Shown here: in pieces, positions 5,986 to 30,117 of the stretch
Numbering within the stretch: the stretch's first letter is position 1
How the letters are laid out: every line of letters begins with the position of its first letter
Assembly (NCBI GenBank): GCA_951406725.2
Contig: OX597817.1
Location: forward strand, 119,970,001-120,034,000
Reading direction: 5' to 3'
Source: Octopus vulgaris
Taxonomy: Eukaryota
DNA: 64,000 bases
The notes under the pieces: generated by a model
What the model saw: only the letters and a program-made list of their open reading frames with translations
Told to the model about the DNA's origin: nothing
Databases searched by the model: none
Translations under genes and position numbers: made by a program

Positions 5986-6622
5986 CTAGCAGCTAAACCT
6001 GGTTTCACCTGGTCAGTTTGGATGATGTGGCTGCAAAACATACTCTGTGTAAGCATTCAACTTGTTTGGGTATGCTTACGCTAAAAAACAATTTTAGAAT
6101 GACTTTTTTCTGTCAAAACACTAAAAATAACTGACCCACAAAAAAAAAACCAACCAAGATTCAACCAAATCAAAAAATAAACCCAAATTCTAAGCGAACA
6201 AAGATAAACCATCCCACTTCAATTGCACATGCACACGCACACACGCACACACACAAACATACACACATATTTACATACAAACACACGCATTCACATACCC
6301 CCTTTAACATGCACACACAGAGTTGAAACACTGTTTGATTTATTTTTCCAGCATATAATTTTCATCATTCCACTACCAAGTATGACATCACTCCTTCCTT
6401 CCTTATTTATCTATAACCCCTTCCTTTCTCATTCATAAACACAAGAGTATAATCATAGTAGATTATCTCGGTAATCATGGGAGCTATGAAAAAATACAAA
6501 GCTTAGCATCACCACCGGATCATTCTACACATCTGTGTAATTTTTAGCGCAATTCCACCCAGCCATTTGACCATGAATCCCAAGACAAGAAAGAATCACT
6601 TGTCAAATTTATATACATATAT
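5986..6622 (-). mobile_element. Non-autonomous Helitron-like element
   Basis: Minus strand ends accaggtgaaaccaggt-ttagctg-CTAG|T (hairpin plus CTAG 3' terminus); the 5' end fades into TA-rich sequence; no TIRs or TSD. Confidence 0.6.
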
Positions 6623-6697
6623 ATACACACACACAAACACAATTTCAGTATGGAAGGTGTTTATGTGCCGTTTAAAAACAGATGGAAAAAAATTTGA

Positions 6698-6742
6698 GTC
6701 AAAATATTTTCAGCGCTTTGAAATCACAACCTGTTCACTGAC
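6698..6742 (-). ncRNA. Type I hammerhead ribozyme motif, G3:C8 variant (left arm)
   Basis: guca-GUGAACA-g-guugu[gauuucaaa]gcgcu-GAAA-auau-UU-ugac; stem II is decayed. Confidence 0.5.
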
Positions 6743-6767
6743 AAAACTTCATGTTGCATGAAGTTTT

Positions 6768-6812
6768 GTCAGTGAACAGGTTGCAGTTTCAAAGCAATGA
6801 AAATATTTTGAT
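6768..6812 (+). ncRNA. Type I hammerhead ribozyme motif, G3:C8 variant (right arm)
   Basis: guca-GUGAACA-g-guugc[aguuucaaa]gcaau-GAAA-auau-UU-ugau; palindromic stem III. Confidence 0.55.
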
Positions 6813-6944
6813 ACAAAATAAATTTAAATGTTGAAGTGAATCTAACGGTTTTTTGTGTGTTTTTAAATGGCTTAGAAACACCCCAATGTTGAAATGGTTT
6901 TGTTTCAGCACACGATCTCATATATATATATATATATATATAAT

Positions 6945-7272
6945 AATAATAAATATTAGGGAATAAATCCAAATTTACAGGGAAAAATCAGATTTAGGAT
7001 TGAATCCAATTTTATAGTAAAATATTATATAATATTAATTAGAGACAAAACCACTATTTTGCAAATCAAACAAAGAGTTATCAAACAATAAGTTATGAAA
7101 ACTTAAAATTGAATAGAAGATCTGAAATCCACCTGATGAATGTCCTTAGAAGAGACACGAAACAATTGTAGTGGCAAATTTAATTTCATTTAATTTATAT
7201 TAAATTTTTTTATGTATTGGATTAAGTCTTTCTTTGTTTGATTTGCAAAATAGTGGTTTTTTCTCTAATTAA

Positions 7273-7277
<5 letters not shown>
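6945..7277 (+). mobile_element. Penelope-like pseudo-LTR with inverted partial copy, inserted in (TA)n
   Basis: About 47-bp inverted repeat 7031-7076 / 7231-7277; internal hammerhead; (TA)n on both sides. Confidence 0.7.
7129..7174 (+). ncRNA. Type I hammerhead ribozyme
   Basis: ccac-CUGAUGA-auguc[cuuagaaga]gacac-GAAA-caauug-UA-gugg; predicted cleavage after GUA at 7170. Confidence 0.8.
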
Positions 7278-7305
<28 letters not shown>

Positions 7306-7307
<2 letters not shown>

Positions 7308-7597
7308 AAGGTACATAGCCTAGTGATTATGGTATTGCACTCATAATTGCTAGAACATGGGTTTGATTCCTAGAACAAGCAGTGCTTTATGTTCTTGAGC
7401 CAAACACTTCATTTCATGTTGCTCCAGCTCATTCAGTTGTAAATAGGTAACCCTGTGAATGAATATCCTCCCAATAAGATGAGATTTGTGCTGCTCTTCT
7501 AGCCAGCAAGATGGCATCATTTCAAAGCTAAAAACATCTAAAGTACATTGTGACCAGTGATGTATAACATCTAATTTTCTACTCAATACTGTGATAT
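7306..7597 (+). mobile_element. SINE family D (tail variant 2), diverged
   Basis: Head and centre align to 25562-25821; tail aligns to the reverse of 11412-11520. Confidence 0.65.
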
Positions 7598-7599
7598 TG

Positions 7600-7640
<41 letters not shown>

Positions 7641-8756
7641 TCACACACGAGTAAGTGAACAAATGAAAGAAAGTAGTACTCAATACATTTGGTTTGAGTT
7701 ACAGATTTTAAAAATTTGACTTAGATACTCACAACTTGCAGTAACTCTCAACCAAATATCTACATTTCTTCATTTCTTCACTCACTCGCATGTGCATGCC
7801 TGCATGTGTGTGTGTGTGTGTGTTTGTGTGTGTTTGTATGTGTGGATATGCCTGCCTGTTATTCTAAACACTTACATACAATATACACATGTACACACAT
7901 ATTTTTAGCAAAGATCTATCATATTACAAACAGCATGCATGTGCATACATACAAGTGTGTGTGTGCTTGTGTTTGAGCTTGCATTTACAACAATAGTTAA
8001 ATGATAAATGGTTATGAACAATGTCACTCCTAAGGTGTGTATTTTGAGTATGTCACTTACCCCTGTCATCACATTATTAGGTTGAACATGATTAACTATC
8101 TCTTAAACAGTCTTAACCAGCTCTGTGGAAGCTGAACAACTTGCAATTGTGTAACAACAATACAAATATCAACAGAACAGTAATTCAAATTGTTGTAGCA
8201 TGTATATGCAGTATACATGCATACACCAACCATCAAAATATCTGATACTGCCAGTAATTTGTAACATGAATATTCAACATAGTAGTTTCTTATGCTATTT
8301 TTGATTTTAATGTGATGACATTCAATCTATTCCCATGTTGATGTATATTCATTAATAATTTATTCTCTATCAAGAAAACAGTTGTAATTCTAGCGTGGAA
8401 GGTGTTTATAAGCCATTTATAATAAACTGTAATTGCTTTCGCTTGGTTTACCTAACATATCTCACAGTAAATACAGCCTCAGTTACTATCAAAACTATTT
8501 CTGCCTTTAATTTTCTAATACAATAATACATGAAATATAAAACATGTGAATATATATAAAAAAAAGGTTCTGTTAAAATTGTGAAAATATTTGATAAACA
8601 ATCAAATAATCTACATGATATGAGTCTCCTCCTAAATTGATACTTACACTTGATAACACTATAAATCAAAAATGTTAGTAAATTCTTACTTAAAATAATT
8701 ATCAATTTTCTTCAAAGTATGACAAACAAAAGATAGAAGAAAAGCTATAAACTCTC

Positions 8757-9229
8757 CCCTTTCTCAACCATTTTTGCCTATAGACCCCTTTGATTCCTAG
8801 TTCACTCAAGTGGACTCTCATAACTGTTCAAAGTTTAAACAAATCATATTATAAAAGATATCTCTTAATTTTTCTATTCGTTGCTCAATTCTACCTTCTT
8901 TCAATCTTAGCCTTTGGTTTCCCCATTGATAAATTGCTAATCCCCCAAGTATCACCTTCTTCTACCTGTTCATTCTTTCCTCCTAGCTCAGCTTTACTTC
9001 TCTTTGCATAGCACCCTTTCTCACCATCCTACTATGGCGTCACCCTGTTATCTCTCTATACTAAATCATATTATATCTTTATACTTAAATATTATGCAGA
9101 ATTGTATAAAAAAAAATTTTAATATTTTGTGTGTTGTAGAAGTATAACAAATTTATTGCACATAAATTTTAACAACAAAATCTTCTATGATTACTCAAGG
9201 GTCTTCTGGACCCTGGTTGAGAACCACTT
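8757..9229. mobile_element. Decayed hAT-like MITE
   Basis: Ends ttctcaacc... and ...ggttgagaaccact are inverted and resemble CAGTGGTTCTCAACC-type hAT termini; the left end is decayed. Confidence 0.45.
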
Positions 9230-10204
9230 CTTTATTCTGTATCAACTTCAAATGCAAAACCTAGTTCTATTACCATAAATAGCGTGTCATTAAAATAATA
9301 TTCCTTATAAATTTATAATGTATTCCTTATAAATTACATTTGTGTATTCAACAGTCTTTCTAGATATAGCAGTTGGTTTCACAAACATTCTTAAGCTTTG
9401 TAATTTGAAATGCATCTCCTTTAATGAATTGTCCATAAATAAATGTGTATTATACTTTATTTGAACTGATATAATTCAATGTATTGGATCTATGATTTAT
9501 GATGGTTTTTATAGCCATTCTTTCTCCTCTCTTCTTGACAATATGTGATGAACCAAAATGTTTTGTAAATGTCCTGATAGGAAATGTCATACTACTGTCC
9601 ACATTTGAAAATCACCAATCTTCATACCAATAAACATTAAGAAGCGGAAACGTTAAAAGAATAAAAAAGGAAATAATATGAGAAAATACAAAATAAAAGC
9701 AATAATAAAGTAGTGGCTTAGACTTTTAAACAATGATCGAAAAGCTGATATTAAATGAAGGCAGGCAGCTGCATAGTAGTGAATGAATACGGTTGTATAA
9801 ATATAAATTGAGAGTAGTCAAGCTTCATTAGATGAACAGTAATAAAAACAACCTCATATTTTCAAAAGATATTTAATAAGTCTAGCAATAGTAACCAGAA
9901 ACGCAATATGAATGATACATTTACATCGTTATAAGACACAGAAATGCTTTTTTTGTTTTTGAAGTATCAAGTAAACTAGGTAGTAGTTACTTTAACTGAC
10001 CAATGAGCCTTTAATATCATTACCTTTGAATTAGTAATAAATACAATCAGATATCTTCCATGAATTCACTACATAGGTTATTAAGTTATTTGTTAAGTCT
10101 TTTAGTTAACTAATCAGTGTAATAAAAATCAGCAAATAGTATATTTTTATATATATATATATATATAGTATATTCTTTGTGAACTTGATTATTTTTCTTT
10201 CTGT

Positions 10205-27350: not shown

Positions 27351-27885
27351 TTAACACAGCTCTTTAAATTTCATGAAAACATATCCGTTTCTTTTGACAG
27401 TTGCAAACAATGATGTCATATGCTTAGGTATAGTCAAATATCCAGACAATTCTTACAAAATGAAAGATCTTGCTTTTCAGTACAAACTGCATTTTGGCAT
27501 TCTGACTTCCTAAAGAAGAGTAAATAAATGATTACTACTAATGATATACTATCAGTGAAAACTCTTGCAATTAGTGTAATCCCACGAGGTATTATTCTTA
27601 CATGCCTTATCATGCTTGTTTCAGTTCTTCTCACATATACACATATACGTACTAATAAATAGATATAGATAAATATGTTTGCATAGAACATTCTGCTGTT
27701 CCTATATGTATGGTGTTATAATATGTGTTTCTTACTGAAATTTAGTATCATAACAGCAATTCAGTATCATAACAGAAAACAGGGACTGTACTGTTCTATA
27801 TCTAAGAGATGAGGAATTATGTACATTATTTACATTACTTACATTATTTACATTCGACGGATATTTGTCCTCATCTTTGTTGTTA

Positions 27886-27929
27886 ACACAACATTTCAGC
27901 TGATATACCCACCAGCCTTCTTCAGGTGT
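27886..27929 (-). ncRNA. Minimal type I hammerhead ribozyme (left arm)
   Basis: acac-CUGAAGA-a-ggcug[guggguauau]cagcu-GAAA-ug-UU-gugu. Confidence 0.7.
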
Positions 27930-27977
27930 CTTGGGGAAATTTTGAACCTGGGTTCTCATTCCTAAGGTATTCTTCGA

Positions 27978-28010
<33 letters not shown>

Positions 28011-28021
28011 CATTATTGTTC

Positions 28022-28095
28022 AGGTCACTGCTTGGAATCGAACTTTGAATCTTGGGGTTAGTAGCACGTGCTCTTAACCACTACGCCATATGCCC
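28022..28095 (-). promoter_or_regulatory. tRNA-derived internal Pol III promoter (A and B boxes)
   Basis: gggcata-TGGCGTAGTGG-ttaagagc...a-GTTCGATTCC-aagcagtgacc. Confidence 0.75.
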
Positions 28096-28229
28096 GAGGT
28101 TAAGAGCACATGCTACTAACTCCAAGATTCCGAGTTTGATTCCAAGCAGTGACCTGAATAATAATGATAATAATAATAACGTTGAAGAATACCTTAGGAA
28201 TGAGAACCCAAGTTCAAAATTTCCCCAAG

Positions 28230-28273
28230 ACACCTGAAGAAGGCTGGAGGGTATATCAGCCAAAATAGTGTGT
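28230..28273 (+). ncRNA. Degenerate hammerhead (right arm; G12 lost)
   Basis: acac-CUGAAGA-a-ggcug[gaggguauau]cagcc-aAAA-uagu-gugu. Confidence 0.5.
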
Positions 28274-28355
28274 TAACAACAAACAAGATGAGGACAAATG
28301 TCTGTTGAATGTAAATAATGTAAATAAGGGACTGTACTGTTATATATTTTAATCT

Positions 28356-28743
28356 GGATGGATATGGAAGCACTCCGTCGGTTACGATGATGAGGGTTCC
28401 GGTTGATCCGAATCAACGCAACAGCCTGCTCGTGAAATTAACGTGTAAGTGGCTGAGCACTCCACAGACATGTGTACCCTTAACGTAGTTCTCAGGGATA
28501 TTCAGCATGACACAGAGAGTGACAAGGCCGGTCCCTTGAAATACAGGTACAACAGAAACAGGAAGTAAGAGTGAGAGAAAGTTGTGGTGAAAGAGTACAG
28601 CAGGGATCACCCCCATCCCCTGCCAGAGCCTCGTGGAGCTTATAGGTGTTTTCGCTCAATAAACACTCACAACGCCCGGTCTGGGAATCGAAACCGCGAT
28701 CTTACGACCGCGAGTCCGCTGCCCTAACCACTGGGCCATTGCC
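28356..28743 (-). mobile_element. SINE family C (tRNA-derived), young
   Basis: Near-identical in reverse to 43931-44316; TSD ttaatct at 28349-28355 / 28744-28750. Confidence 0.9.
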
Positions 28744-30117
28744 TTAATCTATTGCCTTACATGAAAGTGGGACTTCAGCATGGCTTGATGTGCAATGACT
28801 AAAACAAACTAAAAAATAAACTAAAATACTTATTATTACCTTTAAAATTCTCCCATATTTATAGATATAGGTTTAGGTATTCAGCATCTAACACAGATAC
28901 TTTCAAGATATCTTTCTCATTCACTTCTGCTCTCTCACACACAAACACACACACACCTATTTATTTATTCAAGAAATCAGAAAGATTTACAAATTAATAA
29001 AAGCTTGAAGTCATAAATTTGACATTATTCTATATATTATATATAAGTAAGACACAGAGGCACAGATAGAGACCATATGATATCTAAAGAATAAAACTGA
29101 AAGGGAAATGATCATACAGCTTTTATTTACCAGGCAAGTATATTAGTTATTACACAGAGAGAGCATCACCTTGCATCACTCATTCATAGATTTACCTCTG
29201 GTGACACATGCATATATGTGTTTGTGTATGTATACACATACACTTATAAACACATACACATATACATATAACATATATATGTACATACAAACATATGTTC
29301 AGGCAGACAGATACACACACATACATTTACACATACACACGCACATATACATACAGCATACATACATACAAACATATGTACAAGTAGATAGATACATGCA
29401 CACACATGTATGTATGTATGTACACATATATACATATTATAGCTTAGTTGTTTCAGGTAATTTTTATCTGTGGAAGTTTATTTGCATCCTAATAGTACCA
29501 CTGAAGTGATGAGACATAAATATGTAATTGATTTTTCAATGATCATTCAAGCAAAGCGTTATTATTTGAAGAAAAGTCAAGTATAGACTTTCTGTCTAGT
29601 GTTATTTAAAGAAATATATCCCAAACAAATTTGCATGTGTTAAGATTTTCTTTTACATGCTTGAAGGCTTTGTGGATGTCATTAAACAAAAATGGTTCAT
29701 TTTAATTAATGATGTTAGGCAGATATGTTTTATGTTACAAATTAAATTTTCTTCTATGCTCATGACACAAAAGTCTGTGCTAGTTTGGAGTGAAAATTAA
29801 ATACTATTTAGAGTTGTAGTTAAGATCTTAAATATTGAACAGAATAAATGCTGCATGCCTTGAAATGACACCTATAATTAATATTATTAGTATTTTCCTT
29901 GGCACATAGTGAAATAGGAGAATCATCTAAAGATATATTTTTCTGGGAAACATCAAAATAGTTGCAGGTTACCCAAGGGAATATTAGCAGCCATCTTTAG
30001 CTACTTGAGAGTCTACATAGAGGTTTATTGTCTCACAAGATGAAAAATAAGAGCTAACGTACTGATAACAATTTGTCTTTATATCTGTATGGATATGTAT
30101 GCAAGTATACACGTATA

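Follow-up and report, generated by a model that had tools for sequence, protein, structure and literature searches.

The stretch of Octopus vulgaris DNA considered here (64,000 nucleotides; GenBank assembly GCA_951406725.2, contig OX597817.1, forward-strand positions 119,970,001 to 120,034,000; called the window and numbered from its first letter) holds a single copy of a repeat in which a tRNA-like head is joined to a hammerhead ribozyme, and which we attribute below to a coding Penelope-like element (PLE). The copy consists of two inverted arms, 27793-28095 on the minus strand and 28098-28327 on the plus strand, 84% identical with gaps and 91-93% identical across ungapped blocks, flanked by an exact 15-bp direct repeat. 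This target-site duplication (TSD), AGGGACTGTACTGTT, is identical at 27781-27795 and 28327-28341 (both plus strand); because its final 3 nt are also the 3' end of the element, the true duplication is 12-15 bp. With that adjustment, we recover the head-to-head arms within a 15-bp TSD described in an earlier model reading of the letters without database searches (the sequence-only reading).

Read along the minus strand, the left arm opens with the head (28021-28095), whose A box, TGGCGTAGTGG, lies at 28088-28078 and whose B box, GTTCGATTCC, lies at 28043-28034. A (TAA)n spacer (27982-28020) leads to a body (27931-27981) whose ATG (27959-27957) starts the PLE reading frame that runs on across the hammerhead and the tail. 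The minimal type I hammerhead (27885-27930), called on the features given in PMC4209133 (cited papers are drawn on in excerpt throughout), comprises stem I GACAC/GUGUU, CUGAAGA, a bulged A, stem II and GAAA, with a predicted cut between 27890 and 27889; its core (CUGAAGA..GAAA..UU) is intact, but the CG palindrome and one G-C pair are lost. The tail (27793-27884) carries the long 3' end, reaching position 174 of 176, and closes a 9-bp stem (27807-27815 / 27868-27876, minus strand) in whose loop a 9-nt repeat is expanded by 18 nt. The right arm, on the plus strand, has a 5'-truncated head (28098-28156) that begins at head position 17, runs to position 75 and lacks the A box, followed by a spacer (28157-28177) and a body (28178-28327) that includes a decayed hammerhead (28229-28274; core broken by G12>A and U16.1>G) and a short 3' end at position 150, within the tail-stem loop. 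The box content of both heads, the 9-bp stem, a cut near 27890 and the absence of a run of four T from the sense strand of either arm had all been listed by the sequence-only reading, and all are borne out.

Across the family the core positions of the hammerhead are conserved, with the core intact in 28 of the 47 arms that cover it fully. The bulge after A9, the G10.1-C11.1 pair and the CG palindrome (15.2-16.2) match the minimal hammerheads of PMC4209133. The proposed Rfam check did not bear fruit for the window copy, as the hammerhead family gave no match at the gathering score over the whole window or at E<=10. Minimal hammerheads show no cleavage as monomers and low cleavage as dimers in PMC4209133, and in PMC11167929 the PLE protein assists hammerhead cleavage while insertion does not need it. 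The octopus hammerhead is predicted to be weak, or assisted by dimerization or protein. Since the copies span the cut site, their template was uncleaved RNA, the hammerhead not being used in making them.

The repeat family and its coding parent

Three DNA searches, with the body, the body plus tail and the head, gave 90 loci (L numbers below), of which the window's own two and three duplicates were removed to leave 85; an unselected sample of 80 segments of 10 kb (800 kb) contained five insertions. Extrapolation from this sample to the 2.8-Gb genome gives about 17,500 insertions (95% confidence interval 5,700-41,000), and the family is real, high-copy and old. Non-CpG divergence from the majority sequence is 3.6-3.8% in short copies and 4.7-5.1% in copies linked to an open reading frame (ORF), which would correspond to roughly 10-14 million years at the rate quoted in PMC13282606. 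Head and hammerhead form one family, as had been supposed: leaving the window's own copy aside, 27 of 29 loci selected on the head have the body behind it in the same locus (L284 and L289 lack it), and no family made of the head alone came up when the 800-kb sample was scanned with a head profile, the next matches being other tRNA-derived short interspersed nuclear elements (SINEs) with weak scores.

The unit extends into a coding element on both sides. Upstream of the head, L011 has a reverse transcriptase (RT), an endonuclease, a stop codon and a leader, and a DNA search with its coding region returned 2,678 candidates. From the ORF stop, the unit runs through a 37-nt leader, the head, (TAA)n, the ATG, the hammerhead and the tail into the remaining ORF. 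Among 29 loci selected by DNA, 28 reach into the head and 24 have at least 50 nt of it collinear after the ORF; 24 of 30 loci selected by protein (four shared with earlier loci) likewise have at least that much, and no alternative shared 3' untranslated region was seen after the ORF among ORF-selected loci. Downstream, the tail passes in frame into the ORF in L254, and it likewise leads directly into the ORF in most of 30 loci found with the N-terminal part of the ORF; body and tail make up the first 51 codons of that ORF, all open, with the ATG 21-22 nt inside the body. None of the five random insertions extends past the last 71 nt upstream of the head.

The RT was identified by RVT_1 (E 1.2e-9). 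The C-terminal domain is similar to the GIY-YIG domains that other PLEs in the genome carry (HH probability 90.6, E 1.3e-6), and a homologue of 60% identity is annotated as a GIY-YIG endonuclease; the Pfam GIY-YIG profile gave no match on the parent's C-terminus. A protein recorded for Octopus sinensis is 100% identical to sequence of this genome over 229 aa, as for a host that is this octopus or closely related to it. A 569-aa frame is open across both domains in L370, placing RT and GIY-YIG-like domain in one ORF as in endonuclease-bearing PLEs, and its linker has no CxxC pair, unlike that of a second PLE family in the genome. A Cys linker motif is a feature of Neptune and Nematis elements, and its absence is a criterion for the Penelope/Poseidon type (PMC8557442). 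Given an RT plus GIY-YIG-like ORF without Cys linker and a hammerhead lying over the ORF start, the repeat is, by the features tested, almost certainly the pseudo-long terminal repeat (pLTR) of a Penelope/Poseidon-type element. Like other such pLTRs, it contains a minimal hammerhead and has partial tandem or inverted copies and an optional tail, here about 25-34 nt. The sequence-only reading was therefore right to invoke Penelope-type machinery, and right that Pol III is likely to drive it; the parent is a PLE with RT and GIY-YIG-like domain that shares the tail, of the kind it proposed to look for. Its picture of a separate SINE-like parasite made by fusion proves too narrow, as the whole unit, head included, belongs to the coding PLE, and short and ORF-linked copies carry the same variants at different frequencies.

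Families with a Cys linker, recovered by a Pfam GIY-YIG search, were rejected as the parent, as their pLTRs are not homologous and their hammerhead variant differs; they were kept as a control. What looked like a break point at ORF position 397 arose artificially from a deletion in L254, which served as the reference copy. No sister family without the head emerged: 30 loci from 150 protein matches were the same family, and two metagenome scans were empty. The second PLE family (L201-L204, L214; for example L203 2842-5184) has an upstream ORF and many open 781-aa RT-GIY-YIG frames, together with a Cys linker, (TA)n ends and the hammerhead variant UUGAUAA..GAAAC, and appears young. To our knowledge, an extra upstream ORF is unusual for PLEs.

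Inverted arms and the tRNA-like head

Inverted two-arm insertions account for 57 of the 85 selected and three of the five random insertions, and 29 of 90 have heads on both strands. A TSD of at least 9 bp flanks 43 of 60 two-arm insertions, one of them within a CA repeat, and none of 60 controls; lengths are 10-15 bp with a mode of 12-13 bp, and the sequences are 75% AT. Arm 3' ends are bimodal, with one group at 167-176 and another at 133-157, most of the latter inside the loop that the 9-bp tail stem (109-117/152-160) closes. One long and one short 3' end occur together in 37 of 41 classifiable two-arm insertions that were not tail-selected (binomial p 5e-8), and two more, beyond these 41, had an odd 3' end. 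Inverted arms, TSDs and paired long and short 3' ends are Penelope hallmarks: an inverted 5'-truncated copy with a 30-40-bp tail is a PLE signature (PMC8557442), and in PMC11167929 two RT start sites were mapped around the tail, with both strands cleaved and extended.

The two arms of an insertion appear to come from one source. A complete head is found in the short arm only (20 insertions), the long arm only (17), both (9) or neither (8). In 25 of 29 pairs the two arms carry the same allele at a subfamily site, and paired arms have more differences in common than arms paired by shuffling (p 0.001), yet only 6 of 118 rare changes are shared, as expected of one source followed by independent decay. 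Because a long-tailed arm could not have been copied from a short-tailed cDNA, we infer two primings. Many arm junctions read CATATGCCC-AC-GGGCATATG, centres that are consistent with joining at a self-complementary 5' end.

The head is related to a tRNA and carries A and B boxes, as in tRNA-derived SINEs. Among 12 anticodon types of host tRNA, a set without Arg(ACG) and most other types, its nearest relative is Arg(TCG), with a score of 69 against a shuffle maximum of 45. The 3' end departs from the borrowed LINE (long interspersed nuclear element) end, single orientation and simple-repeat or A tail of a SINE, being the PLE ORF start, with two fixed 3' ends and inverted arms.

The 5' ends of copies gather at the head start. 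In sets that were not head-selected, 51 of 57 arms reaching head +5 stop at -18..+5, and 14 of 71 stop within 55 nt inside the head, an 11-fold per-base excess of stops at the head start; continuation into the leader beyond -8 is clear in 5 of 58 arms, or 8 by eye. Short copies start at head -8..+5. Type 2 promoters of RNA polymerase III (Pol III) start transcription a few bases before tRNA +1. Short copies that start at the tRNA start therefore suggest that the element likely uses a tRNA-type promoter for SINE-like offspring.

Runs of four T (T4), at which a Pol III transcript would end, are scarce on the sense strand. The majority sequence of ORF plus pLTR, a unit of about 2.7 kb, has none; the copies have 16 in 66 kb (0.24/kb; 71 loci), and other PLE ORFs of the genome with like T content have 27 in 9.1 kb (2.98/kb). 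The deficit has p 0.0004 at the other-PLE rate and 0.005-0.014 under base shuffling. Phe is encoded by TTT in 3 of 14 cases, compared with a T ending in 50 of 96 other two-fold codons (p 0.04), a use not significantly below that of other PLEs (p 0.25). Deficit and codon bias together are suggestive, not proof. Downstream of short copies the first T4 lies at a median of 62 nt (98 arms), which would give Pol III transcripts a length of about 350-450 nt.

Several side observations concern the same insertions. The 9-nt unit of the tail loop (window 27816-27851) differs in copy number among insertions, and its site is that of the short RT start. In L060 (384-1872), six head-to-tail body-plus-tail units with (TAA)n joints lie behind a single head, a retrozyme-like array. 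A repeat of about 570 nt sits in the (TAA)n spacer of L055 (845-1496), L049, L246, L284 and L304; it has nine matches in the 800-kb sample and is likely a TAA-targeting element. The piece between the two arms of L021 (1610-2415) resembles, by a putative motif, a restriction-like-endonuclease LINE. Finally, a different tRNA-headed SINE of about 380 nt adjoins the element in the window (28360-28745, minus strand); with 40 BLAST matches in the 800-kb sample it is far commoner than the element, to which it is unrelated outside the boxes.

Weighing the promoter reading

We consider it probable that the head is an internal Pol III promoter and that short RNAs made from it are copied by PLE protein priming on both nicked strands. 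A PLE would have captured a tRNA-Arg-like sequence upstream of its ATG. Pol III would start about 6 nt before tRNA +1 and read head, hammerhead and tail up to the next T run. The PLE protein would then nick both strands about 12 bp apart and prime two cDNAs, one in the tail-stem loop and the other about 25-34 nt further 3', whose ends would be joined, often via the self-complementary GCCCACGGGC at the RNA 5' end, into a head-to-head palindrome.

A number of results weigh against this reading. The head falls below the Rfam tRNA threshold, with a broken acceptor stem and no cloverleaf fold; ARAGORN called no tRNA in the window, and Rfam gave none at the gathering score there or at E<=10. Apart from the five random insertions, the loci are best matches to a query and no random draw. 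At a second variant site the arms agree less well (26 of 39). With stricter nulls the T4 deficit loses strength (p 0.03-0.09 for dinucleotide shuffling, 0.02-0.15 for recoding, 0.14 and 0.79 for synonymous shuffles of two segments), L370 has three T4 runs across 565 codons, and the two metagenome scans gave no outgroup DNA for comparison. No intact ORF that could mark a master copy was found, the best being L370, with 569 open codons, and L254, which is nearly full length but broken. Three RNA-seq runs of a related species, sampled at 6% each (6,364-9,456 placed reads per run), from fragmented and apparently unstranded libraries, show equal depth on both strands and no pile-up of read starts or ends; 66-70% of the reads pass into unrelated flanks, and loose ends fall at genomic boundaries. 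Such a pattern indicates passenger transcription and gives no sign of Pol III starts or of cleavage. The same runs have no read ends at the predicted cut site, which this library type would show poorly.

The RNA data also fit an explanation in which the insertions are ordinary 5'-truncated PLE copies of RNA made by Pol II or by read-through, the tRNA-like piece travels as a passenger, and the small palindrome GCCCACGGGC just before it is where RT stops or cDNAs are joined. No Pol III-like ends appear in the RNA-seq, solo pLTRs and 5' truncation are normal for PLEs (PMC8557442), the palindrome lies exactly at the 5'-end pile-up, many junctions are fold-back-like, and variants are common to short and ORF-linked copies. 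We nevertheless judge this account unlikely. The hairpin, with 4 bp and a 4-nt loop, is much the weakest when set beside stem II and the tail stem, both of which RT crosses, and many 5' ends fall at -4..+5 without the palindrome. On this account, chance would have to explain both the T4 deficit and the intactness of the A and B boxes. Two variants are over-represented in short copies (p 0.01, 0.0002), which are also less diverged, and this suggests that they kept amplifying.

Short copies are more numerous than ORF-bearing ones and lean towards younger variants, which would also suit an independent SINE lineage, in which a short master split from the PLE and spread by borrowing its protein. 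We hold this to be improbable, as short copies have no variant to themselves, ORF-linked copies show both alleles at every diagnostic site, and the head is present in the coding element itself; any separation of a short lineage is at most late and graded. Even less credible is a head that serves as an RNase P processing signal cutting multimeric PLE RNA at +1: 5' ends do cluster at the tRNA start, and MALAT1 mascRNA is a precedent for a tRNA-like RNase P signal, but many copies retain 2-7 nt upstream of +1, and the broken acceptor stem and missing cloverleaf speak against such processing.

Beyond the internal Pol III promoter for short copies, the whole coding element may tentatively be regarded as a Pol III unit, which would make it its own SINE as well as an autonomous retrotransposon, although we think this rather doubtful. 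It would have captured a tRNA-Arg promoter and been purged of every TTTT on its sense strand of about 2.7 kb. L311 and L326 begin at the tRNA start and continue into the ORF, reaching 343 and 861 nt beyond the tail. As a separate observation on the RNA data, L223 (1455-1740) shows linked differences in about 25-50% of ORF reads in runs X21-X23, varying by run, indicative of a distinct, expressed subfamily or locus in the related species.

Relation to known elements

Penelope/Poseidon PLEs such as Poseidon_Ac (PMC11167929, PMC8557442, PMC4209133) likewise have an RT followed by a GIY-YIG-like domain without Cys linker, pLTRs, an inverted 5'-truncated partner arm, an optional tail and AT-rich targets, and in Poseidon_Ac the hammerhead also overlaps the ORF start (PMC11167929). 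Unlike them, as described in those sources, the octopus element has an A/B-box head in its pLTR before the ATG, copies that pile up at the head start and no sense-strand T4 in the unit. The SINE-like schistosome repeats Sm-alpha and Sj-alpha (PMC2770079, PMC6765202) also place a tRNA-derived Pol III promoter before a hammerhead. Sm-alpha, however, is tandem and tRNA-Gln-derived, with canonical hammerheads and no coding partner stated in these excerpts, whereas the octopus copies are dispersed and inverted, with a minimal hammerhead and an identified coding parent. Cassandra, Helenus and Ajax, the TRIMp3 elements of PMC10886601, similarly carry a small-RNA-derived Pol III promoter in a terminal repeat, but they are non-autonomous LTR elements with a primer-binding site, a polypurine tract and 4-5-bp TSDs, while the octopus pLTR sits on a coding PLE. 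Non-LTR retrozymes (bioRxiv 10.64898/2026.07.22.740005) are non-coding PLE pLTR derivatives with type I hammerheads, and L060 is such a tandem; they differ in forming head-to-tail arrays and, in the text available, have no reported tRNA head or Pol III promoter.

What is new here is a tRNA-Arg-like head inside a PLE pLTR, for which we found no earlier description. Our literature search, with Repbase, Dfam and most subscription papers outside it, returned no PLE with a tRNA-derived promoter. Octopus repeat surveys count Penelope and tRNA-SINE families (PMC13282606, PMC8967140) and, in the parts available, do not describe the element, although Repbase, Dfam and the library of PMC13282606, with 190 Penelope-like families, may already contain its consensus.

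The short copies offer a clean natural record of PLE insertion, pairing a long with a short 3' end in each insertion, with a TSD mode of 12-13 bp and either arm complete. With this record, a twin-priming model for the unexplained inverted pLTR structure could be put to the test in the in vitro system that already exists. Had Pol III transcribed the whole ORF, the question would arise of how an uncapped RNA gets translated, and the PLE hammerhead would gain a possible role. More broadly, a coding Penelope element with a tRNA-type promoter in its terminal repeat would represent a LINE-free route to the birth of SINEs, along which the short form has reached roughly tens of thousands of copies.
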